A stretch of 62,180 nucleotides of DNA, the filler included. It is 10 parts of 10 records of this genome, joined end to end, with 100 filler letters (N's around TTAATTAATTAA, not from the genome) between each part and the next. Parts side by side here need not be neighbours in the genome. Positions count along the whole stretch, not along the records: positions 1 to 9,442 come from SRR15195285_2622; 9 more parts are not named here. One strand, written 5' to 3'. Below, one piece after another: positions 1 to 57,700 of this stretch. The notes beneath the pieces are model-generated. The model did no database searches. It was given only the letters and a program-made list of their open reading frames with translations, and was not told the DNA's origin. How positions within the stretch are numbered: position 1 is the stretch's first letter; every line of letters begins with the position of its first letter. The translations under genes were made by a program, and so were the position numbers.

Positions 1-3000
1 CGACCTCACCGAGGTATTTGACCTTGCGCTCATTCGTCCAGAGCCACGGGTGTGCCAGTATCTGCTCAGGGGTCGGGCGGGCATACGGTGACCCAGACAG
101 CATCGCGGATAGCACACTGACTTGTTCTGGCGACAGGCTTGCATCGTCTAGAGCTGTGTTGCCATCCAGTGTGTTCTGCTCCACTGTTTCGGCGCTGGTT
201 CCATCGACGGCAAACGGCTCACGACCTTCACTCAGGATAAAGAACAGCGTGCATCCCATCGAGAATATGTCAACTGCAATCGCGTCTTGCACTTGCACAA
301 AGACATCAACCTTCCGTCCATGGACAATTTCTGGCGAACGATAGCCCAATGTTGTGCCTGCAGTGTTGATTCTGGTTGCGACCGCATCCACATTGAGCAA
401 TGTGGCGCAACCGAATCCACACAGCACAGGGATCTGATCATAGCTGAGGAGCACATTATCTGGAGTGATATTGCAGTGCACAAATCCTGCGTCATGGAGC
501 CCTTGAACACCATCAACTATACCACGGCACAGCTTGTCCATCGCGCTTTCACCACTGGTGTAGGAGGAGAGATCGCTGAGAGACCTGTTCACCATAGCAG
601 CACGTACCGAGCATTCGCACGGCGCCATCGCCAAATAATACGTATGTCCATCTTCGTGTGCATGGAACAGATTGATGACATTCGGATGACGGCAGTAAGT
701 CATGATGCTGTCCTCAACGGAAATCAGCTCCCAGTCTGTCTTTCGAATCTTTACAACGCATGGCCTCGGCTCAGCACTTGAGTGGGCTTTGAACTCGCCG
801 CGATAGATCTTGCAGGTGCTACCCTCAGATGCGACGTCGTCACCAGGCTTGTAGAATATACCGACAAGCTGCGTTGTTCGGTACAGACTCAAAGCTCGTG
901 AGACAGCCTCGATTACCACTGCTAGCCCCAGAACAACGACGTTCAATACGATCAGAATGATTCCTACCTCCCGCTCGCGAATCAACTCGCACGAGTCCAC
1001 GAAACCAGTTTTGATCGCCAAGATGCACTGCATAGTGAAAAATAGGCTAGTATCTGCTAGCATGCGCATCTGGTTTGCACGTTGGTCTGCATAGGGCCGC
1101 ACAATAGCATTGACCACTGTGAAGAAGAATGCGATCACCACGCCGGCCAGGATCTGTGTCACACTACCCGCCGGCAACACTGTCAGCAGCGCTGAAAGGC
1201 ACAGTTTTCTCACGAAGTCCACTACCTCGAACCAAAAGTAGGCCGGTTTGTAGTCACGGATCATGAATTGAAATGTGTCTCGATCACCATACCACCAAGG
1301 CTTTCGATTATTCGAATCGGAGCTTTTTGCAGCCGACCAGATTGACGTCGGCTGTTCATCTTCCTGCGCAAGCTCGGTTTGTCCGTGGAGGCGAAGCGAG
1401 CTGTCCATCAGTCGCTTTTTGTTTAGACGAAACACCCACAGTGAACCCACAGGGATCCCAATGGGATACAGCACAAAACACATACACGCTAGGTACCAAT
1501 GGAGCACGTATCTGCCGTTGTCGCAGTCAATTCCATAGTCGTACCGCTGCAGTTCCATTGCAGAGTCGTAGCCAACTTTGTATGACACGCAATTGAGCAT
1601 GTGTACCACGCGTGTGATCAAAAATGGGTAGAAACAGAACAACACGATGAACGCTCTGTTCAGCAAGTTGTTGCTCTGAATTTGTGAGGTAGAATCTAGC
1701 GACGCAGCCGATCCAGACTGCATGCCATGCGCTTCACCGTGGTGGTCTGACACCGATCCCCCAAAAGATTCGGTCAAAGCGGCACTATTTGCATCACTGC
1801 GATTTCGAGGTACTAACTTGTTTGTTAGCTGTCGTACTTTCAAGGACATATCAGTTTTTTCGTACAATATGAGCCCTGCAAGCAATATCGGCACGCACAA
1901 CATAGCGAGTTGGAACTCGGCGAACAAATCTAGTGGATACATGCACTTCACATGCAGGTAACCGAGAATATCGCCTTTCAGGATACGTAGCTTGTCCAGC
2001 ACCAGTTCAAAGCTCGCAGGAAACGTCACAGACATGATGACCGGAAACTGCATTATCACCTGAAAATGAGAAACGATGATCTTGACGTAAACCTGCGCAG
2101 ATGCTTTTTCATCTGCATTTGCACTTGCCGAAACATATCCATGGCGCTCTGCGCTCTTGGACTTTTCACGCCGCTTCTGCTCTGCGATTTTCACGAGCTT
2201 CATCGGCAGGTACAACAGGACCGCGCATCCCAAAAACACAAGTCCTACCAGAACAAGCGCTTGCTCTCCCACGCTTTCTTGTGCGCAAGAGATGCAGAAT
2301 TTAGTGGTTCCACCGACGTAGTCATCCTTTTCAGAACTGCCGGTACATTCGGCGCACAATGGACTCGATGAGCTGTGCCCGTCTCGACAAAGGTAGCGAA
2401 CCGTACTGGAGTTGGATGGCACAAGCCCGGACCAAGAAACCATCATTCCGTCAGTAATCACTGCACTACCTGTGTGATCAAACTTTGTAGATTCGGCAGG
2501 CTTGTAATACTCTTCAAGACGGGACGCAGGTGTCGCACTGGCATCTTTGCGAAGGACAATATCCTGCCTCTCTCGGGACCCGCCACCATATCCTGATGCC
2601 ACTACTGCGTCTAAAAGCACGCTGGCATCATCATTTGCGACAATTGCAGAGCCTTCGTCTTCTTGCATTGCATGGTGCAGCTTCTCGACTGCATGCACTA
2701 GTTCTGCATCAGCTGGTAGAGCGTCTCTGTCGATAGCGAACCACTCACCGAGACACATCCGCGGCATCGGGCACTGGTAAATGTGAACACGTGTACGAAT
2801 ACCGGCTTCGCGTGTCATCATGTCGTACAGACTGCGTTGTTGGAAGTCGACCCTGCCGTAACCAGGCTGTATCAACGGAACTGAAGAGATGCCGTCCGGC
2901 CCTTCAGGGCAGCGCACGCAAGGCTGAAGAGTCGTGTTTGAAACTGGGCACGGTAGGCAGAAAGTTTTTGAAATGTCTGGGCTTATGTCCTCCGGCTCGT

Positions 3001-6000
3001 CCAAACACGAACTATCACACGACAGCTCGATGCGTCTTGCGTCGTAGTAGCCTGGCGCGCACTTGCACACACCATGTACAGCAACCTGCGTGTTCGGGCA
3101 CGGTGCACACCCTGAGTGTTCCGTATTGATAACCTGGTCGCTAGAACACTCGTGGCACTGCTCGCCTCCTACTGAAAATGTACGCCCCGTGCACGCCGTG
3201 CATGCTGTGCAATTATTGGCTGGCTCTGATCCAGCGGGGCAAGGCACGCATGCAGTCTGGTCCGGATTGGCGATATGTCCGTCAGGGCAGACTGTACAAG
3301 ACAGAGAAAAGCCCTGTGCCATAGTACACACGAGACCATGCGGACAGCGGTTTTCTGAACATCCTCCTATTCCAGCTCGAATGCCACCGCCCATATAGAC
3401 CGCGCCATCACTGAACGCAGCGTAAGAGACATGGTACAGGCGAAGAGACTGGAGAGTGTCAAAGTAGATGTCTCGCCCGACGAGATCAACGTTAGTAGCT
3501 GCATTTGCCTGAAACTGCGCGCCCGCAACAGAGACCTGCACAGACGCATCACCGCCAGTGTAAATCCCTCCTCCGTACTGAGCAATTCCCGCGCTGAAAC
3601 TTGCGTTGTTTATGTCAAGGGTTGAGTTGCCGACCAGGCCCAAGGCTCCGCCCGATGTATGTGCCTGGTTGCGCTCAAAGTGTACCTGCTGTGCTACCAG
3701 ATGTGTGCTCTCAATCCATATGCCGCCGCCCATTTCGGCACCATTATCAGAAAAGCGCACGTGCTGTAGCTCCATTAGCTGAGTTTCACAGTGCCAGCGG
3801 CATGACGAGAATATAGCGCCACCTTTGTTGGCCCGATTTCTGATGAACTCTACGTTTTCAATTGTTGCCTCGGTATCGTGAACAAACAAGGCCCCTCCAT
3901 ACTCGGCAGGATTTCCGACAAAGCTCAGAAAACGGATTACCACCCGAACAACGTCTTGCATATGTATTCGACCAGGCGCCCGTACATAAACTGTGTCGTT
4001 GTGCATCAAGTGGCCCTGGATCACTGCTGAGTCACGTGGTTCTGGTACCAACGCGTGTGATGGCACGTAGCTCAAAAGCCAGGCCGAGCTTGTGTCTATG
4101 CTATTCACTGGTAGCAATCCAGATGCTAAGCTGGAGGGAAGGAGTGTGGGCCATGAAGATGTACCGTGATTATATACGTAGGAGCAACTGCGACCTGTTG
4201 GCTCGTCATCTGTGTGTGTGTTCAGTGCGCGAAAACTGTACAAATGAATCATGCACGTGCCATCGGACCCATCTTGGGTAATGGTCAGACTGTCGGAGGG
4301 GCCGTACGTGAATCGCAACGTCTGTCTAGCCGCAGCATGATACTGCGAATATAATACTCGTGTGCTGACAGCCACTGTGATAAGACAAACGGCATTGTCA
4401 TGATGCATTCCGAAATTGATCTCGGCTGTGTTGTATCCAGATGGCAACGATGCCAAAGTCAATGAGCTCATGCAGTCTCCGTGGCACCCAAAGCCAGCTG
4501 CGATGTCCATTGCAGGCACGGGTCAGTCACGCGGTTTAAACTGCGGTGATCACAGAAGGAAGCTGAGCAAGCGCACTAGGTTAGACTCACCAAATGGACC
4601 TTCCGCAGATATACCTGTAGAGCACGTTTGACACAGCCCTCCGTCACACGCACTCGACAGTCCTTGTGTGTAGCAAACTTCGAAGCTATCGATCCTATCT
4701 AGCGTCCAACCGTTCTCCGCAAGCGATCGACACGGCCCAGCTTCATGATGCAGTGCACCACAGTCGTTGTGCGACGGAGTGTTGATTCCATTGCGGCCAA
4801 AATGAGCAACTACGATCGGTGGCGCGTCAACTTCCTCGCAATCCACATGGGTGTGTCGAACCAGTGTCGCTGCATCATACTCGCACGATTCTACACCATT
4901 TGCCATTGGGCTGTAGTTGTTAGCGAGACTGTCAGAACATGCAGCGCGAACACAACTAGTCACATCCACACCTTCGCCGTCACGGATCGATCGTCGTCCC
5001 GCTGGACACTGCAAACATTGTTCAGCAGCATCAGTCCCGCCGCGGTATGTTCCCGCTGGACAAGGCGCACAGATTCTCGACGAAACTTCGACTCCGTTTG
5101 TCAGGTCGTGCGCAATCTCTTCGTACCGCCCTGCAACACACTGTGTGCACTCTGTTGGTGCCACTGAGCCTGTACGCGCAGTGGACCCGGACGGACAGAT
5201 TTCGCAAGTTGTTGCCATCGAGCTCTCTACATCGAGACTGGAAAAGGTGCCGATTGGACACGCAATGCAAGCAGTGCTCGCGTCCTCATCATGATCAAAG
5301 TAGCCCGCAGCACAAGGTCGGCATGTGTCCGATCGGCGCACCGATACAGCGTCAATTAACACAGAATACCCGTATGGTGGGCGCAGAAACTGTTCCACTT
5401 GTTGGTGTGATGTCACGTCTTGACCAGACTGGTACGGTGAAGTGTTTTGAAATCTTATCACCGATGCTGTGGCCACAGCCTCGAATCGCACACTGATCGT
5501 GCTGAAACGATTTTGCAGTTGTCCCGGCCCCCAGATAGGACGGCCGTCGGCATACACGGACAACCGCTCAGCAGCGTCTTCACTTGCTTGCAGCGGCACT
5601 GCAGCGGAAAAGGTGAGCACGTACTGCGACCGTACGTTCAGGCCAGCAACGTTCTGCTCCAGATAGCCGCCCCCGCCAGCGATGGCGACGTAGTAGCTGC
5701 CACTCGGGGCTGTTTGAGCAGGTCGCTCCGCACTGCCCCAAGCGTTGTTGTGCTCGCCCACCGGACTGTACACGAGTACAGCTCCCCAATGCTTCAGCTG
5801 GCTCGACACTCCGCTCCATCCATCAGGTAGCGAAAATGTACCAGCGGTTCGACAGTCGACGTCTGTACACGCATTGCTTTCAAAGTCGCCGTTCACGACC
5901 ACACCCTCGGTCACCTCAGAACCAGGTGGACAAACGAGGCACGCCACCGCACCGATCTCTGTGGTGAATTGGCCAGGCGGGCAGGGAACGCACGCAGTTG

Positions 6001-9000
6001 CTGCGCTACTATCAGCATCATATAGACCAGCCTTGCACGGTGAGCAAGCTGAGTCTGCTTCGGCATCTCCAAGCGCGCTTCCTGCGATGATGACAGCACC
6101 GTTCACAACACCTAGTGTTAACAGCGCGGAAGCATCAGCCACTGAAGGCTCTGGCGCAAGGACCTGTCTGGTTCCTATCGGATTAGTTAGCGTCGCTCCG
6201 GCGCGAATCTGAAGGTTGGCAAGTGCACCCCATGGCTTCGTGCCGTTGTCGGCACTGCCAATTGCGTCGATGGAGAAAGCGCAGCCTAGACTAGGATCAA
6301 TTGTACGTCCAACTAGCTCGCCGTCCACGAAATGAGTGTACTCAGTTCCCGAGCGCGATATTGCCAATTGCCGCCAGGCGGATGCGACACGGGGCTGAAA
6401 TATTGTGATCGAAGTAGCTGGCGCTGCGGCACAAGTCTCAGCTGATTCGCCAGTCAGCTGCAGTCCTGGCAGCACATGACCGCACCGACACTCCTGCTGT
6501 CCACCACCAACATTGCTAGTCGCTGCTGATGAAATACTATCTACCTGTAGCTCATCCTCCGGAATGCAGCAGGTGTTCCCGCAAACATTCCACCCATCGT
6601 CACAGTCTTGATCAAATCCGAGGAACATTGTCGCAATGTGCTTGAGCTGGCCTGCATGATAGAACCCACTTCGGCATGAACTCCCTTCACAAGAGGTACA
6701 GCAGTTATCGTCGGTGTCGGTGCCTCCAAACGGCGATCGCTGTCGGCATGCAGCATGACGGCCGCCTGCGGCACACGGAAGAACATCCCAGCAGCGTGCA
6801 CCAGGGCTATCTGGAAGCCAGAAGCTACAGCCTGCAGCTTGCAAGCAGCTCTGCTCGTCTTCGCATCCGTTGCAATTGTCTGCGCTGCAGTCTGTCGCGA
6901 TTGAATTAGGCTGAGTCCACCCAGTCACACCGTAGTAAGTACCCGGCCCTCTGGCTTCACAGTGCTCGGCACACTCACCAATCGATTCGACTACGATTGG
7001 CGGATAATTACTCGCGCCGTCCCACACGCCATCGCCGGCGGGAACACGGGCAACCGTGATGCTGTAGGCGTTGCCGTGTGCACTCAGTGAATAGATGCCG
7101 CTATCTGGTGCGTTCCAAACATCCGCATTCCACCCCAACATGTCGCCCTGTTCGCTGTAGAGCGGACCAAATCTGCCGCCGCGCTGCTGCGTGGGTGTCC
7201 GCAGATTCGCTGCACCGGTCTGGTTGCGGTCGTCAAACATCCAGAACCGCGGCTGACTCGAGTCGACAGCGAAGATATTCACGTTGCCGATGGCCCAGGC
7301 TTCGTTGTTTGCAGCCTCGTTGACGGTCGATGTCACCCGCAGCACGAGCGAGGCGCCGCTGTACGTGTGCGTCACGTCAACCACAGCCTGACGACTGCCG
7401 CTGTATGTGTCGCTCCACACAAGGTCCTCGCCGATGAAAACCTGAGCGGTCTCTTGGTCCCACGAGCCCCGCGCGTAAAACGTCAGGGACACGTGTACCG
7501 CTGCGGTATGTCCATCGGCGAGGCCAGTGTCGAGCTCGTACTGTGCGGCCCCGCCTCGACCAAACCATCCGAGAACGGCGGATCTCTCAAAGCTAGCCAA
7601 GGTCAAGCTACCACTAGCCAAGGTCAAGCTACCACTGTCTTGCATGCCGCCGGTCCAACCTGCAACAGAGCCGCTGGCAAACGCGTCTGTATATGCGAAT
7701 CCACGCACACATGCAGCGTCAGACCAGGATGCAGCGTCAAACCAGGAGCAACCACTTTGCTGGTTACACTGAGCTCTGTGGGCACAGCTTGGGCAGTACT
7801 CTGAGCATGCCAGTGCCTCGTCGCTGCTTTCGTAGCTGTACATAAATGCATGTGAAACGGAATTGTAGTACGCCGTGCTGCTCGGCCCCCAGCGAGCAAA
7901 CGGCGCGTACCGACCATTGTACTTTGTGTCGGGATGATCCGAGATAAGCACCTCCGCCCAGTCCGACAGATAGCACCCGAGGCTGCTTGACTGTAGCAAG
8001 AAGCTGTCGATAGTACCGTGGTTCCATGCGGAGGTTCCATCACCCTGCACGCACGCTGTTTGCACTTCGACTGTGTAACCTTGTGCATCGCCTCCCCAGC
8101 CACATGAATTTCTGCAGTTGCCCTGTTCATCGGCGTTGCTGCTGCCCGGACAGATGCATCTCCTCTCAGACAGCTTGAAGTTGAATCGTGGCGATCCGTT
8201 GCAGCGCGCGTCACTTAAAACCTGGCGTGCGCACTGTAGTAAATCGGTTGTCTGGTCAAGCTCTGTATAGCCCTCGCAGCAGTACGTTCCTGGGGCGCCT
8301 ATCTGTGTTAAGCAGACGCCATCGTCGCTTGCGACGTCACAAGTGGATGTATCGCATCGATCGTGGCTGTTCCCGGATGCGACACCGCCACCGCCACTGG
8401 ACGTAGCAGTCCTGGACGTAGCAGGTGCTTGCGCAACGCGGCACACTGATGGCATCGATGTAGGGAATCTCGGGTTGACAGTTTCAAGATCCGAATCGTC
8501 CCAACCGCCCCACATACTTCCAGCAAATCCGCCTACGAATTCTGGTAGCGGCGTGATTGAGACATAGTCCTGGCGGCCACCAGAATCATTTGTTCTAGTG
8601 CCACTCGGTTCACCAGTGCACCAGTCAGAATAATCGAATTCGCTCGAGTCAGTGTACATCCAGGTGCCTTCCTCCTCCGCGTCATTTAATCCGATCCAAA
8701 AGCCGAAGCTCCCATCGTACCCCGCCACAGCCTCGATCTCGTCCTGCTGTTCGCGGCTGTGAATGCTCACCAGGTGCCCTCCCAACGATACACACCTCGC
8801 CTCAGCGTCGGGCCAGTTCAAATGATCCGCTGTAAAAACGTAACTGGATTGTCCAGAAACTCGAGCTGGAACATCGAACAACATCCCGTCGGCGTGCCCC
8901 GGCGAGCGGAACCAGCCCTGCAGAGTAAAATCGCCCTGCACTTGCAGGCCCCACTTGCCTAACCGCAATGCATCGCCGACGCCAAACAGAAGTCCGGCCA

Positions 9001-9442
9001 TGCCTTTGTCCGGACCCTCAATGATCGTCGGGTTGCCAATGAGGGACGGTGCCACGGTGGCCTCGGTTCCAGCGATGCACACCCCACAACTACTGGATTC
9101 CGGAGTTGGAGTAAAACCAACTGAGCACGGGCCTGCCTGGTAAACGCTGTTGTGAATGACGGGCGCTCCGTCGTCACCTTCGGATTCACCGCCACACAAG
9201 AACGCAGAGTTGCCCCTGCATGGTTGACTGCAGGCGTCATCGGATCTTGCCCCCCACCGTTCTGGGCTGCAAACACATCTGTCGCCCGGCTGCAACCCAA
9301 AGTGTGTGTGGTCCCGCCCACATGCGGATGCACAGCTCCACGGGTTGGTGATCCCGGAGATGATGACGCGTGCTTCCGGCGCAGCGCCAAGCTCTGCCAG
9401 TTCATGCACTTCGTCGACGCCCGTGCAAACGAAGCCGATCTC
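1..9442 (-). CDS. Giant multipass membrane receptor (>3,100 aa, partial at both ends): WSC, C-type lectin, LamG-like, Cys-rich GCC2/GCC3-type repeats, galactose-binding-like domain, Pmp-like GGAI/FxxN repeats, multipass TM region, IRE1/RNase L-like pseudokinase
   Basis: ORF 4550..9409 is open to the contig end at 9442. An in-frame 93-nt intron at 4498-4590 (GTGAGT...CTGAC...CGCAG) joins it to a stop-free frame running from 4497 to base 1, which the ORF track omits, presumably because it has no stop in the window. Motifs: WSC (CASAC...CRGNSAFLCGG), CTL (NWPDAEARCVSLGGHLVSIHS...FWIGLND), GGALF/GGAIF/GGGIW repeats at ~3520-3950, TM motif DYKPAYFWFEVVDFVRKL at ~1200-1260, and a kinase fold at ~40-840. 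Confidence 0.88.
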
Positions 9443-9542
9443 NNNNNNNNNNNNNNNNNNNNNNNNNNNNNNNNNNNNNNNNNNNNTTAATTAATTAANN
9501 NNNNNNNNNNNNNNNNNNNNNNNNNNNNNNNNNNNNNNNNNN
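9443..9542. other. Artificial contig linker (N44-TTAATTAATTAA-N44). Identical linkers at 12571-12670, 18619-18718, 24827-24926, 33938-34037, 37820-37919, 43860-43959, 47079-47178 and 54162-54261
   Basis: The same 100-bp N/all-frame-stop spacer occurs nine times, and genes are cut at several of them. Confidence 0.99.
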
Positions 9543-12332: not shown

Positions 12333-12796
12333 TCTCCGAAGGATCCACGGACACAGATGACAACGCCGGAGCCCCACTAGGTGGCTCGATAGGGAGCGTA
12401 CCGCCTCGCTAACGCCGGTATCGAGGCAGGCGGCAGCGAGGTAGCCCGCGTCCCGCGCCGCGGCGCCGGGAGCGAGCGAGATCCGGGAATTTCTGTCTAC
12501 CGGAATCTGATACTGACGGTAGGAAGACCATAGGAATTCCTACCGTGACTTTCGAGCTAACTTCACAGTCNNNNNNNNNNNNNNNNNNNNNNNNNNNNNN
12601 NNNNNNNNNNNNNNTTAATTAATTAANNNNNNNNNNNNNNNNNNNNNNNNNNNNNNNNNNNNNNNNNNNNTGTACACGGGACTGGATTTTCCGTGTTTGA
12701 CTACAGGGTGCGGCCTCCCCGCCGGCGGCGCCGGGGCACTGCTATACTGTCGATCAGCACCCGGCGCACGCCGTTGCATCGCCCCGTTCAGTTTTG

Positions 12797-17954: not shown

Positions 17955-18937
17955 CGCATCGCCATTCCACCGAGCAGCAGCATTAGATCCAGCGGCAGTG
18001 GGCGGCCGCGTCGTGTGTCGACACAGGGGGCCGTTCATAGTCATCGCCGCCACACAGTAGCCACACAGTAGCCCCACTCTCGGGCTCGGTAAGACCAAGT
18101 ACAGTGTAGCAGTCCCTGCCCTGTGCACACGGCGCGGTGTGCTCAGCTCAGCTCACGCGGCCGATGGCGCATATCAATATGTACACCACGAGCACGCCAC
18201 TGAAGGGGGCAGGGCGTCGGCAGCACACCGTCCACGAGTCTCGCCCTGTCCCGCAGCGCCGGCTCCTCTACTCTCTATCGGGGCACTATGGTACTACAGT
18301 AGATCTACTGCAGTGTGTGTACACTACAGTGTAGCCTATAGTGACACTATCGGCTGGTGGTGCAGCTCCTTGTCCCTGTTCCCGTTCTGGTTCTGGTTGT
18401 ACGTACTAGTAGCCCAGCTGTGCCGACCGTCGGTGTGCCGACCGTACGTGGCGCTGCATGCCCAAGTGCCAATTGGAATTGCTTGTATGCGCCCAACGGC
18501 CAATTTGGGCGGTTGCTGCCGCATGCGCCGGGATGCTTTTTAGACAATCCCCAGCAAGCAGGCAGGGTTATCACGAATTTCTCGCTACAGGGGCCGCCCG
18601 TTCTCCGCGGAGGGTTATNNNNNNNNNNNNNNNNNNNNNNNNNNNNNNNNNNNNNNNNNNNNTTAATTAATTAANNNNNNNNNNNNNNNNNNNNNNNNNN
18701 NNNNNNNNNNNNNNNNNNCACGTGCTCAGGCACAGGACAAGGGCGTTTGCTGAGGGGCGGCCGACTCGTCTGGATCAGAGGACGAGCGCCTTCCTTCGCA
18801 CCGGCTGCTCGCTCGCTGCTCCCGCACAGCTTCCTTGGGGGCCCCAAGGTACGCTTGAGACGGCCCTTGCAAGGACCCTTGCTGTTCTGGTGGTGCGCGG
18901 CTCAGGCCCGTCGTGCAGTGCCCCGGGGAGGGGGGGG

Positions 18938-24826: not shown

Positions 24827-24926
24827 NNNNNNNNNNNNNNNNNNNNNNNNNNNNNNNNNNNNNNNNNNNNTTAATTAATTAANNNNNNNNNNNNNNNNNN
24901 NNNNNNNNNNNNNNNNNNNNNNNNNN

Positions 24927-33937: not shown

Positions 33938-34112
33938 NNNNNNNNNNNNNNNNNNNNNNNNNNNNNNNNNNNNNNNNNNNNTTAATTAATTAANNNNNNN
34001 NNNNNNNNNNNNNNNNNNNNNNNNNNNNNNNNNNNNNACTCCGTCTGTGGATTGAATTCTGACCCAGGGAGGGGGCCCGTGACCAACAGCGTGAACTGAG
34101 CCGTTTTCCCGG

Positions 34113-37819: not shown

Positions 37820-37920
37820 NNNNNNNNNNNNNNNNNNNNNNNNNNNNNNNNNNNNNNNNNNNNTTAATTAATTAANNNNNNNNNNNNNNNNNNNNNNNNN
37901 NNNNNNNNNNNNNNNNNNNT

Positions 37921-43794: not shown

Positions 43795-44292
43795 CTGCAG
43801 CAGCAACAAGCCAGCGAGCAGCAAGCCAGCGAGCAGCAGCAGCAGCAGCAGCAGCAGCANNNNNNNNNNNNNNNNNNNNNNNNNNNNNNNNNNNNNNNNN
43901 NNNTTAATTAATTAANNNNNNNNNNNNNNNNNNNNNNNNNNNNNNNNNNNNNNNNNNNNTGCCGGCGTCACTTAACATGCAATCGGCAGCGGATACTAGT
44001 ACGCGCGCGCTTTCGACGCTTGGATCCGGAGCGCACGCGTGCATGTGCGCGCGTGCGCGGGGACGCGCGGAGCAGGCCGCGCCGGCGGCGGCGCCGCGGG
44101 CGAGCTCCGTCTGCTACGGCGACGCGCACCAGGGAAGCAGGGTGCAGAGACGCAGGGTAGAGCAGAGAGCGAGGGACATAATCAATGTCACGGCGGTCTC
44201 TGCTCGGCCACCACGGTGGGCTTGCTGTCGCGTTTCTTAGGGGAGGAGCCTCAGCCTCCCATCGGCTGCCGCGCTCCACAGCACGCGCAAAT

Positions 44293-47078: not shown

Positions 47079-47178
47079 NNNNNNNNNNNNNNNNNNNNNN
47101 NNNNNNNNNNNNNNNNNNNNNNTTAATTAATTAANNNNNNNNNNNNNNNNNNNNNNNNNNNNNNNNNNNNNNNNNNNN

Positions 47179-54161: not shown

Positions 54162-54290
54162 NNNNNNNNNNNNNNNNNNNNNNNNNNNNNNNNNNNNNNN
54201 NNNNNTTAATTAATTAANNNNNNNNNNNNNNNNNNNNNNNNNNNNNNNNNNNNNNNNNNNNCATTCCAATGAATTTCTGATTCTGATTCT

Positions 54291-54712: not shown

Positions 54713-57700
54713 ATGGAGATCGATGCGGTGGACCTGGACGGGATCGCGGATATGATCGAGGGGATCGCCGAGGAGACTGAATCATCACTGCTGACTGAGC
54801 AGCAGCTCGCCGCCGTGCCCGTCGATTTCGAGAAGACCAGAGTTGGTGGACCAGAGCTGGTGGACGGTTCACAGTCTCCTGCATACATCGTGGACGAGGG
54901 TGTGCTGGTGAAGGAGCTGCGTCAGGACCATGGCGCGAGCGACTGGGGCACCGGGGAATGGCCGGGCGCGCAGACCCTCGAACACGTCGAGCTCAGGGCG
55001 AAGGAGTTCAGGCATGCCCACGACGAATACGCTGTCGGTCATTTCGACATCATTGCTGCGATCGTGTACCTACTCCGCTGAGTGTTGAAAACTTCGCTGC
55101 TGGTTATTTTTGCATTCGAATGCTATACTAGTACTGCTTGGCCGTTGCTCAAGGTTCTTTGTCGCCGGAGCAGGTATACAGACAACAAGAATAAGGTCTA
55201 CAGAAACCTCAACCAGTCCTGCCTGCACGAGATGGTTGAGCCGGATAAGCCGCCCTCCAGGTTCCGGTGGACGTACTATCATCTGCGGAATGCTGTACGC
55301 TCCCTCGACGGAGCGAAAGAAGGCCAAAAGCTCTGGCGCGGTCAAGGGCGATTCTACGATGCGGAGGAAGGGCAGGAGGAAGGGCACTCGTACCAGAAGG
55401 GCGCTCTGGTTGTGTGGAAGGAATTTGTCTCCACAGCCACAAGCAGGGAGCCGGCGGTCAAGTACGCAGCGAACGGTGGGGCACGGAACAGCCACCGCTG
55501 GACTGGCGTGCTTTTCGAGATTCAGGGTGCTCATGCAAACCTCGGCGCGTCCTTTCAGCAGCTGTCGATCTACCCTGACGAGGACGAGATTCTTCTTCCA
55601 CCCGGCACCTCCTTTCAGGTGCTCGAGCGCTTCAACGAGGGTGGGCTCGAGCTGGTCACCCTCAAATATGTGGGCACGTGGGTCTCCCCGCTGACGTTGC
55701 AAGGGCCGAAACCAGCACAGCCACTGCGCAAGCCGCAAGATTACCTCGAGATCTTTGTCCAAACCAAGTGCGGCTTGGAGATTGAGTCGCGGTGGCCTCA
55801 TGACGTGGAAGGGCACGCCGGCACGTATACTATCACTGGCGAGCGGCAGGTTGAGATATTGGTCAGGAAGTTTAAGATGAGACAGCATGAGATTCAGGGT
55901 CGCCTTTCACCGAAGAGCGCCATTCCAGTACCAGAAGACAAGCGCGAGGGTGCAGGCATTCCGACGCACGCGGAAACGTTCTGCTACATCCATCCGCTGC
56001 AGACGCTCGCCAACATGCTGTGGCCACGAGCAGCCGACGAACTGCGGAAGATGCGCGCTGAATCAGGTGAAGGCTTTGAAAACACGGAGGACGCAAAGTG
56101 GATCGATGCGGTGATGGAGGGAGGCTTCGCCTACTTTGACGCTGCCGGGGAAACGATCAGGGTCAACGCGATCAGTCTTCAACCGACGGAGACCGAGATG
56201 GTGTTTCGTGGGTTCCGGGTGGAGGCACAGCACGTCGTGACTGAAATGGATCGATTGCGTCGGCTTGCGGACATCGCGGAGGAGAGTGAATTCACTGCAG
56301 GTTTCAGAAAGGTGGGCTGGATCCATTCGATGGAAACTTTTGGTCAGCGTCATCAGTTGGTCAGTGATGAGCACGACTACTCAGATGGTGCGTTTCTCGT
56401 GCTCCATGCACCCGAGACAGAGGGGGGACCAGACGTCACATGGTTCTACATCATGATAGACCCGAACGACGCGACGTATGCGGACTCCAAAAGAGTGGCA
56501 CAGGAGCATCTGAGCAATCAGGCGGAGACACATGGGCTCTTCTCTGACGCTTACAACGAAGCCGTTCGTGCGCACACACACCACGTTAGCCACGTCAAAT
56601 ACAAGGACCACCTTCCGATCAGTATCGCGCAAGACGTTGATCTCAAGATTGAGCCACATTGGGACGATGCGATGCACGCGGGAGTGTACAGGATCGCAGG
56701 TCTGCCACTTCAGTATCCAGTCGTCAACAAAGTGCTGGAAACCCAGCTTGAGTTAACTTTGGGCCAGCTGCGAGGTTCGTTATCGCCGAAGCACGTGGTC
56801 ACAGTACCACCGGAGGTCCGAGCAAACGCTGGAATCCCCCCTGCAGCGGTAAGAAAGCCCACAAGTTGCGGTCTGCTTCGATTCACGCAGAAAATGCACT
56901 CAAATGGGTGGTCGACTTGCAGGTGAAGTTTTGCTTCCTCTCGCCGCTTCTAGATCCCGACGCACTCGCAAAGCTCAGCAAGCTACCGCTCCTGCAGCTC
57001 GCTCGCAATCCTTGGACTTCTGCGCTTCTGGCCGGGGGCTTCACCTACCTTGGTGAGAAGCTCCGACGAGTCGCATACTGCTGTAATGTGTTGCCTTAAT
57101 TCACTTGTGAGCGAGTGCATGATTGTGGCGGTGATGGTGGTTGTAGATGACAAGGACAATGTGCTGGCCATTAATGCGATATCATTCGCCCCGTCCGCCA
57201 CAGGATTGCGGCTGATGGGCAATGAGGTGAAGGCTGATTTCGCTAAAAATGGACTGGAGGAAGAAGGACGGCTCGTGCACATTCACGAGCCAAGAGAACT
57301 CAGTGATCGTGGCTGGGAGAGCTTCGGCTGGGTTAATCCCAACGAAACATTCGGCGCTAAGAAATTGTCCAAAAAGCATCGATACGAGAACGGTGGTTTC
57401 CTCTACATCCGCCGCTTTAAGAGTGGTGGACACAAAACTTATTTGTACTCGCTGGCGACCTCCATGTTGACGGAAGAGACTCAGGAATTGCAAATATCTG
57501 AAGAAGATCGCCTCTCATGTGGGTATATCGCAGCGGTCAACCGCGCAATCGCTGCCCAGAAGCAGAATGAGGAGGCCACGAATCTGCTGGAAATGGCGTT
57601 CAAACCACCGAAAGAGGATCGCACTTACAAGCTTTGGGATTTTTCGGACGGGGCTAGAAGAGCTTCTAAGGTCAAGGAGGATCTCTGTCAGAATCTCTGG

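Follow-up and report, generated by a model that had tools for sequence, protein, structure and literature searches.

The window analyzed here, a 62,180-nucleotide stretch of DNA whose first part (positions 1 to 9,442) comes from SRR15195285_2622, begins with a receptor open reading frame (ORF) that ends in a kinase-like domain from which both catalytic aspartates are gone. What can such a domain do at the end of a membrane receptor? A sequence-only reading of the locus had suggested that it is a pseudokinase with an RNase L-like allosteric control over a KEN ribonuclease, either convergent with RNase L or shared with it. We found that the domain belongs to a family in which the catalytic losses are general, and we consider it probable, if well short of certain, that it is an evolutionarily fixed, IRE1-derived pseudokinase that would couple rearrangement of the receptor to a KEN RNase independently of phosphorylation.

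An IRE1-like domain without catalytic aspartates

When the domain was compared with all PDB chains by phmmer, yeast Ire1 (2rio) ranked first (E 2.6e-25), with HRDLKPQN of Ire1 paired with HCNITPDN of the window, DFG with GFG and VAVK with VVVK, and with an alignment that extends to HPLFWPKSKKLEFL / HPWLWTNERKVKYLG, the start of the Ire1 KEN domain. This pairing agrees with the sequence-only reading, which had assigned HCNITPDN to the place of HRDLKPxN and GFG to that of DFG at coordinates that are right to within 3 nucleotides; the degenerate Gly loop and the retained VVK, GYRSPE and DIFSMG that it named are all present in the translation (Table 1). Pfam Pkinase (PF00069) matches residues 1258-1493 (E 3e-28; 99.4 bits, the cut-off being 31.7), and an AlphaFold2 (AF2) model of the domain adopts a kinase fold (pLDDT 93.9, pTM 0.92). 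The best matches of this model in Foldseek and VIA are kinases, and the top Foldseek match is human IRE1 6w3c (E 6.6e-18, TM 0.77), with other kinases close behind. When the PDB was searched with a profile of the family, yeast Ire1 (2.8e-45) and human IRE1 (1.6e-40) stood ahead of the next kinase (3.6e-30). The window domain is nearest to IRE1 in sequence and fold.

By sequence, a pseudokinase is a kinase domain from which the β3 Lys, the HRD Asp or the DFG Asp is absent (PMC4718504; papers cited by PMC number are drawn on here and below for the accessible parts of their text). The window domain lacks two of these three residues, the HRD Asp and the DFG Asp, and so falls under the definition. 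Of the features of a catalytically competent kinase, it has the β3 Lys and the αC Glu and is without the HRD Asp, the DFG Asp and GxGxxG. The earlier claim of a pseudokinase is therefore borne out at the sequence level, with the addition that its lineage is that of the IRE1/RNase L kinases.

Conservation of the losses across the family

Relatives were collected by an exhaustive HMMER search with the membrane and kinase part of the receptor (window 2-2242, minus strand), which returned 31 proteins at E <1e-30. These derive from marine metagenomes and from a single-cell assembly in EukProt that its source labels Picozoa sp. COSAG02. A word-based search with the family profile gave 8 proteins, two of them new members of the family (P0177 and P0178); a scan of metagenome contigs with a single protein gave 32 loci at no more than 33% identity and no orthologue. 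In another word search, 12 of the 13 matches carry PF06479, which speaks for an affinity to IRE1. The alignment of the window domain comprised 22 rows of the family and 27 IRE1-like rows. The catalytic loop is covered by 20 of the family rows, every one of which reads H[G/C/N]N (16 HGN, including P0032 and P0168, 3 HCN and 1 HNN), and the same 20 read GF[S/N] at the DFG site (19 GFS and 1 GFN), GFG being found in the window alone. On the other hand, HRD is present in 26 of the 27 IRE1-like rows and the DFG Asp in all 27. P0177 and P0178, found later, read HNN/GFS and HCN/GFS, so losses of the HCN/GFG type, whose conservation among paralogues the sequence-only reading had left to be checked, are shared by all 22 relatives that cover the sites.

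To see which other positions separate the family from IRE1, 20 family rows including the window were compared with the 27 IRE1-like rows, with one row taken per 90% cluster. The family differs at 21 of the positions that show at least 85% conservation in IRE1, and nine of these belong to Mg-ATP handling and phosphotransfer. In the Gly loop, three glycines are affected; in the catalytic loop, the Lys and both the Arg and the Asp of HRD; and at DFG, the Asp, the Gly and the next residue. The HRD Asp is replaced by Asn and the DFG Asp by Gly in 18 of 18 family rows each, while the Gly-loop glycines, kept in 24/26, 25/26 and 26/26 of the IRE1-like rows, are not conserved in the family. A tenth diverged site is an activation-loop Ser that lies 13 residues past the DFG Asp in 25 of 26 IRE1 rows and that we take to be an autophosphorylation site of human IRE1; Ala takes its place in the window as in 9 of 17 rows of the family. 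Counted from Phe712 in the numbering of PMC4536996, this residue is Ser724 of the human protein.

The residues that were retained form a different set. The β3 Lys (K1257) and the αC Glu (E1269) are each present in 17 of 17 family rows, and they are invariant in family and IRE1-like rows together with H1348, P1353, N1355, the APE Glu (E1397), D1417, G1422, R1481 and the HP..W linker. The regulatory spine (R-spine) of human IRE1 consists of Leu616, Tyr628, Phe712 and His686 (PMC4536996), and the equivalents read from the alignment for the window domain are M1273, L1284, F1369 and H1348. Since the residues of the chemistry have been removed while those of the closed conformation have been retained, this pattern of selective loss argues for a conformational role.

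Origin of the losses

The trees were built after five fragment rows had been dropped, and they included no RNase L sequence. Once the columns of the Gly loop, HRD and DFG had been taken out, the 18 rows of the family that were long enough for a tree made up one side of a branch with an ultrafast bootstrap of 100 and an SH-aLRT of 100, the ultrafast bootstrap of this 18-row family tree not having fully settled, and a quick tree likewise sets the family apart from the IRE1-like rows. Rooting on five clearly non-IRE1 kinases (two of the eight rows intended as outgroup turned out to be IRE1-like) places the family as a clade outside the sampled IRE1-like clade. On these sequences, a single loss in the common ancestor of the family would be the simplest history.

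A putative KEN nuclease behind the pseudokinase

Relatives that continue past the linker behind the kinase fold, among them P0018 (51% identical to the window domain), P0178 (80% identical to P0018), P0015, P0017 and P0019, have a further region of ~190 conserved residues with the motifs ...VGLLKFIRNxxAH... and ...PFPWLL.... An Rx4-6H motif marks the HEPN/KEN active site (PMC3710099); in the family, the RN of R-N-x3-H is present in 14 of 15 rows and its His in 13 of 15, and the stretch from a conserved Tyr/Phe position to the RN..H helix holds an extra insert of ~25-35 residues. In the AF2 model of P0018, pLDDT exceeds 90 over most of residues 130-560, and human and yeast IRE1 both match the model over their whole kinase and RNase domains, whereas the match to other kinases ends near residue 384. 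When the post-linker region was looked up in the ESM Atlas, PF06479 clusters came out nearest (0.89), which we treat as a lead only. By sequence and by model, the relatives of the clade thus appear to carry a KEN-type RNase domain directly behind the pseudokinase. The window gene most likely carries one too, since its linker is the same as that of the KEN-bearing relatives. Of the proposed coupling to a KEN domain, the part that stands is the order seen in the relatives, with KEN directly after the pseudokinase; for the window gene itself, whose KEN would lie beyond the window, the claim gains no such support.

Given clade-wide losses and a KEN domain directly behind the pseudokinase in relatives, the most economical reading is that the pseudokinase serves the nuclease as a scaffold or allosteric element without catalysis of its own. 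Its mechanism may be pictured as follows. The retained β3 Lys-αC Glu pair, HxN His, DFG Phe, R-spine hydrophobics, catalytic-loop Asn, APE and subdomains IX/XI would hold the domain in a closed, active-like shape, and the loss of all phosphotransfer and Mg-ATP residues would preclude autophosphorylation. The pseudokinase would then serve as a rigid coupling and oligomerization scaffold, tethered to the last transmembrane helix through a short helical linker. Residues 70-106 of the P0018 model form such a tether, one helix that spans from the last membrane segment to β1 of the pseudokinase. A rearrangement of the ectodomain and membrane domain, induced by ligand or by clustering, could pass through the pseudokinase to the KEN domains, which, once brought side by side, would cut RNA in the manner of IRE1 and RNase L. 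The KEN domains of IRE1 are brought together by back-to-back dimers and oligomers in an active-like kinase conformation, and some ATP-site ligands that block kinase activity leave this juxtaposition in place (PMC4536996).

Several points weigh against this picture, some of them as qualifications of evidence that would otherwise speak for it. The window stops at KYLGEV, within the HPWLW...KYLGEV linker that leads to the KEN domain in IRE1, so that the gene's own KEN lies off the window. Pfam Ribonuc_2-5A scores the relatives at 19.7-21.6 bits in 4 of the 25 scanned, below its cut-off of 23.3. In favor of a KEN domain in the relatives, hhalign aligns the C-termini of the family with the KEN domains of 23 IRE1-like proteins at 93.9% probability (E 1.6e-7, 121 columns), with IRNFDAH paired with LRNKKHH and FPWLL with FPLLL, but this score comes partly from the shared HPxFW linker. 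Residues 108-567 of the P0018 model likewise match the kinase and RNase of IRE1 in VIA, at 568-963 of the chain (Z 29.5 over 374 residues, rmsd 3.8), but the alignment supplied to AF2 for this model included 27 IRE1-like rows, which favors a KEN fold. The cluster closest to the window (P0036/P0174/P0175, 68% identical over the C-lobe) reads TCNFDAH, with Cys in place of the KEN/HEPN Arg, and departs from the rest of the family after ...HVKAGR; the KEN nuclease may therefore be dead in this sub-lineage. Finally, the back-to-back dimer of human IRE1 has N-lobe salt bridges of Arg594 and Asp620 (PMC4536996), a region that is not conserved in the family: the Arg before β3 (25 of 27 IRE1-like rows) and the Ser-Asp at the end of αC (Ser in 24 of 27) give way to Val, to Cys and to a one-residue deletion, which speaks against a simple copy of the IRE1 interface.

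P0036/P0174/P0175 may part from the family because the gene calls include an intron that is not spliced out or because the nuclease is degenerate. The gene calls of P0020 and P0165 break within the activation segment; as their contigs agree in listed length with those of P0036/P0174/P0175, they may be the front half of the same gene.

Alternative readings of the receptor tail

The tail might be entirely non-enzymatic, with kinase and KEN dead or absent in the window gene and a docking or adaptor module all that is left, for example one that recruits partners through the active-like surface of the pseudokinase or through a C-terminal PDZ-type ligand. The Cys in R-N-x3-H of the nearest cluster and the unseen KEN of the window gene would fit such a tail, as would the ...[V/I]TAL ends of several relatives (P0017, P0019, P0095 and P0176), which resemble what we take to be a class I PDZ-binding motif. 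We nevertheless consider this reading unlikely, given how widely the RN and His are kept across the family; P0018 and P0178, which share the sub-clade of the window, retain IRNFDAH and FPWL, and the KYLGEV of the window linker is identical to theirs.

A second alternative is an atypical but active kinase that phosphorylates by a non-canonical route. WNK, Haspin and CASK phosphorylate by a non-canonical mechanism despite missing motifs. Some predicted pseudokinases have likewise proved to be active (PMC4718504), and the β3 Lys, αC Glu and catalytic-loop Asn are invariant here. However, the catalytic base and the metal-binding Asp are both gone, along with the catalytic-loop Lys, the three Gly-loop glycines and the activation-loop Ser, and the family table holds no conserved acidic residue at neighboring positions that could compensate, which makes activity of this sort highly improbable.

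Least credible is an assembly or sequencing error at both motifs, or a decaying pseudogene: the assembly is fragmented and of low coverage (contig word depths ~2-8), but the same substitutions occur in 22 independent relatives, the GFG codons are unchanged in an independent metagenome contig, and the 1506-codon frame is open, with an excess of synonymous differences and in-frame indels, so we regard this reading as very unlikely, close to negligible. Neither HRD nor DFG, either of which would have spoken for an error in the assembly, occurs in these relatives.

The comparison with other data sets behind these statements is as follows. Parts of the window stretch are present in nineteen public runs, and contigs from two independent seawater metagenomes are 95-99% alike to the window. 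It was one independent seawater contig (X2), covering positions 1-421 with four differences (33, 132, 238 and 318), that had identical GFG codons. An independent metagenome contig of 902 nucleotides reaches ~480 nucleotides past the start of the window, where the contig of the gene itself also continues. Among the contig rows listed, the HCN codons are reached only by the end of a contig, and their independent support comes mainly from a cluster of relatives that is 70% identical (P0020/P0165-P0167, HCNVNPDN). Among the differences listed, 20 of 39 within the ORF are synonymous, and the five indels listed are all multiples of 3. Contigs from a poly(A) cDNA library cover positions 585-843 and four further parts of the window, which hints at expression.

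Comparison with known systems

To our knowledge, control of a KEN nuclease by a kinase fold has been studied in IRE1 and RNase L only, and a pseudokinase version is known from RNase L alone. Besides being nearest by sequence and fold, IRE1 resembles the family in its layout, in which a membrane anchor is followed by the kinase fold, the HPxFW linker and the KEN RNase (the last as read from the relatives), and the relatives keep the KEN motifs R-N-x3-H and FPxLL. In contrast, IRE1 is an active kinase with HRD, DFG, GxGxxG and the activation-loop Ser, all of which are lost in the family. Moreover, IRE1 has one membrane span and a luminal stress sensor, with PQQ-like Pfam families in the IRE1 matches of the word search, whereas the window protein has 8-9 hydrophobic segments, a TRP-like match and a β-helix/Cys-rich ectodomain; the insert in the family KEN and the position of the family as a separate clade are further differences.

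RNase L likewise has a pseudokinase that is directly followed by KEN. This pseudokinase is a homodimerization scaffold, and RNase activity is enhanced when it binds ATP, which it does in the canonical way, with two cations and through conserved kinase residues (PMC4718504). RNase L thus keeps the canonical nucleotide residues, whereas the family is without the HRD Asp, the DFG Asp, the catalytic-loop Lys and the Gly-loop glycines. RNase L is also soluble, with N-terminal ankyrin repeats that bind 2-5A, and its ankyrin-bearing homologues form one monophyletic group (PMC10400998); on the other hand, a Pfam scan across the 1506 residues of the receptor ORF found no ankyrin family. No RNase L chain is among the 60 PDB sequence matches or the 50 fold matches listed. 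Since the family is placed nearest to IRE1 and RNase L is described as keeping these residues (PMC4718504), the loss of catalytic residues appears to be independent of RNase L, that is, convergent, and the parallel with RNase L only architectural. Of the control that was proposed as convergent or shared, the pseudokinase-KEN architecture thus stands, as a convergence, and a shared loss of residues does not. Judged by its sequences, the family is IRE1-like by descent and RNase L-like by design, and a member of neither group.

STRADα resembles the window domain in that its DFG Asp is also replaced (GLR in STRADα), and it adopts an active-like conformation, binds ATP without cations and acts as an allosteric activator (PMC4718504). 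It differs in belonging to an unrelated kinase group, in having no attached nuclease and in not being membrane-bound. The loss of the DFG Asp and of the Gly loop argues against canonical Mg-ATP binding in the window domain; by analogy, a cation-independent mode such as that of STRADα would be possible.

The fungal TRP-like/Flc family (PF06011) provides the fourth likeness, as residues 1059-1212 of the window protein pass its Pfam cut-off and the relatives match it more weakly. No PF06011 protein with a kinase or KEN tail appeared in our Pfam scans, a wider search for such fusions not having been made. We found no description of an IRE1-like pseudokinase-KEN on a multi-pass receptor in full-text literature, a coverage that leaves out most subscription journals, nor is such a receptor described in the accessible parts of PMC3710099, PMC10463195 and PMC10400998.

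A more far-reaching proposal, which is possible but which we hold to be doubtful at present, is that this is a second, independently evolved pseudokinase-KEN system. An IRE1-type RNase module would here sit on a surface-type, multi-pass TRP-like receptor with a giant adhesion/lectin-like ectodomain and would turn binding or clustering on the outside into cytosolic RNA cleavage without phosphorylation. If true, this would be a receptor-gated RNA-decay pathway of marine protists, used for instance in the recognition of prey, symbionts, mates or viruses. That the module is fused to a multi-pass receptor whose ectodomain is large suggests that sensing at a membrane outside the endoplasmic reticulum stress pathway can be wired to RNA cleavage. 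A lineage that has shed the phosphotransfer residues and kept the Lys-Glu pair and the core would also be a natural experiment on which parts of the fold RNase switching needs, and it bears on the long debate over phosphorylation versus conformation and oligomerization in the activation of IRE1. The members of the family stem from uncultured marine protists, and those that have any annotation are called 'serine/threonine protein kinase' and nothing more, an annotation that would mislead.

Other unusual kinase-KEN proteins were also seen (P0058, P0078, P0090 and P0108), three of which carry two R-N-x3-H motifs per chain. P0108 is an IRE1-like row with HCN, a retained DFG and no β3 Lys, and may be a further, independent pseudokinase-KEN.

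Architecture of the receptor and its surroundings

Along the receptor ORF, Pfam finds in order a Chlam_PMP-type match, TNFR/NCD3G-like repeats, a TRP-like domain (PF06011) and the protein kinase (Table 1); no PQQ-type family was found by the Pfam scan of this ORF. The ORF is probably incomplete at its 5' end as well, because no signal peptide stands at its start. Residues 1-760 contain 36 Cys. Hydropathy gives 8 segments above threshold between residues 755 and 1203 and 1 more just below it, and the PF06011 match (37.3 bits against a cut-off of 28.5) spans profile positions 250-406 of 426, that is, the C-terminal part of the profile only. The expected topology would place the receptor ectodomain outside and the kinase-like domain in the cytosol.

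Table 1. Features of the receptor locus; motif coordinates were computed from the translation of window 2-4519, minus strand
Feature	Position	Strand	Basis or remark
Receptor ORF, 1506 codons	2..4519	(-)	translation; open at 3' end, runs off window position 1
Ectodomain, residues 1-754: Chlam_PMP-type β-helix and Cys-rich TNFR/NCD3G-like repeats	2258..4519	(-)	Pfam
Multi-pass membrane domain, residues 755-1214	878..2257	(-)	Pfam and hydropathy
IRE1-like pseudokinase domain, residues 1215-1506	2..877	(-)	Pfam, phmmer, AF2, Foldseek
Degenerate Gly-rich loop SEGSTC (IRE1: GxGxxG)	812..829	(-)	translation, alignment
VVK, β3 Lys K1257 kept (codon 749-751)	749..757	(-)	translation, alignment
VED, αC Glu E1269 kept (codon 713..715)	710..718	(-)	translation, alignment
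Catalytic loop HCNITPDN	455..478	(-)	HRD Arg to Cys, Asp to Asn, Lys to Thr; last Asn kept
HCN triplet of catalytic loop	470..478	(-)	translation
GFG at DFG site, Mg-binding Asp to Gly	410..418	(-)	translation, phmmer alignment
GYRSPE, APE motif, Glu kept	329..346	(-)	translation, alignment
DIFSMG, subdomain IX, kept	254..271	(-)	translation, phmmer alignment
HPWLW linker motif	38..52	(-)	translation
HPWLWTNERKVKYLGEV, linker leading into KEN RNase in IRE1 and relatives; window end	2..52	(-)	phmmer, alignment
Upstream ORF, 1619 codons: C-type lectin domain and five ephrin-receptor-like repeats	4550..9409	(-)	Pfam

The upstream ORF lies 30 nucleotides from the receptor ORF and reaches the end of the contig. 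As neither ORF begins with a signal peptide, the two may belong as exons to a single giant receptor gene that would encode more than 3100 residues. There are GT..AG candidates; inspection by eye found no splice that would join the two in frame, and no single protein among the collected relatives covers both.

In the relatives, the same Cys-rich ectodomain and membrane module is joined to differing N-terminal parts, such as filamin repeats or CUB plus LRR, with P0038 (4821 aa), P0034 (2364 aa) and P0029 as examples of this variety. The match of P0038 stops right after the membrane domain, and its pseudokinase-KEN tail may be absent. Strain variants of the window in independent metagenomes include in-frame indels of 3 or 9 nucleotides at 1346, 1385, 1563-1564 and 1740, which fall in loops of the membrane domain.

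The 792 N of the window all lie in nine six-frame stop linkers, spacers with the layout N44-TTAATTAATTAA-N44, at 9443-9542, 12571-12670, 18619-18718, 24827-24926, 33938-34037, 37820-37919, 43860-43959, 47079-47178 and 54162-54261. Since the window is a chain of at least 10 joined contigs, the gene neighborhood beyond 9442 is meaningless for the receptor gene. The other ORFs of the window are eukaryotic and include Kelch, Patched/SSD, RanBP1 and IQ proteins and an intron-split penicillin amidase, and on a different contig of the chain, an ORF at 55082-56926 (+) carries an NAD:arginine ADP-ribosyltransferase (ART) domain.

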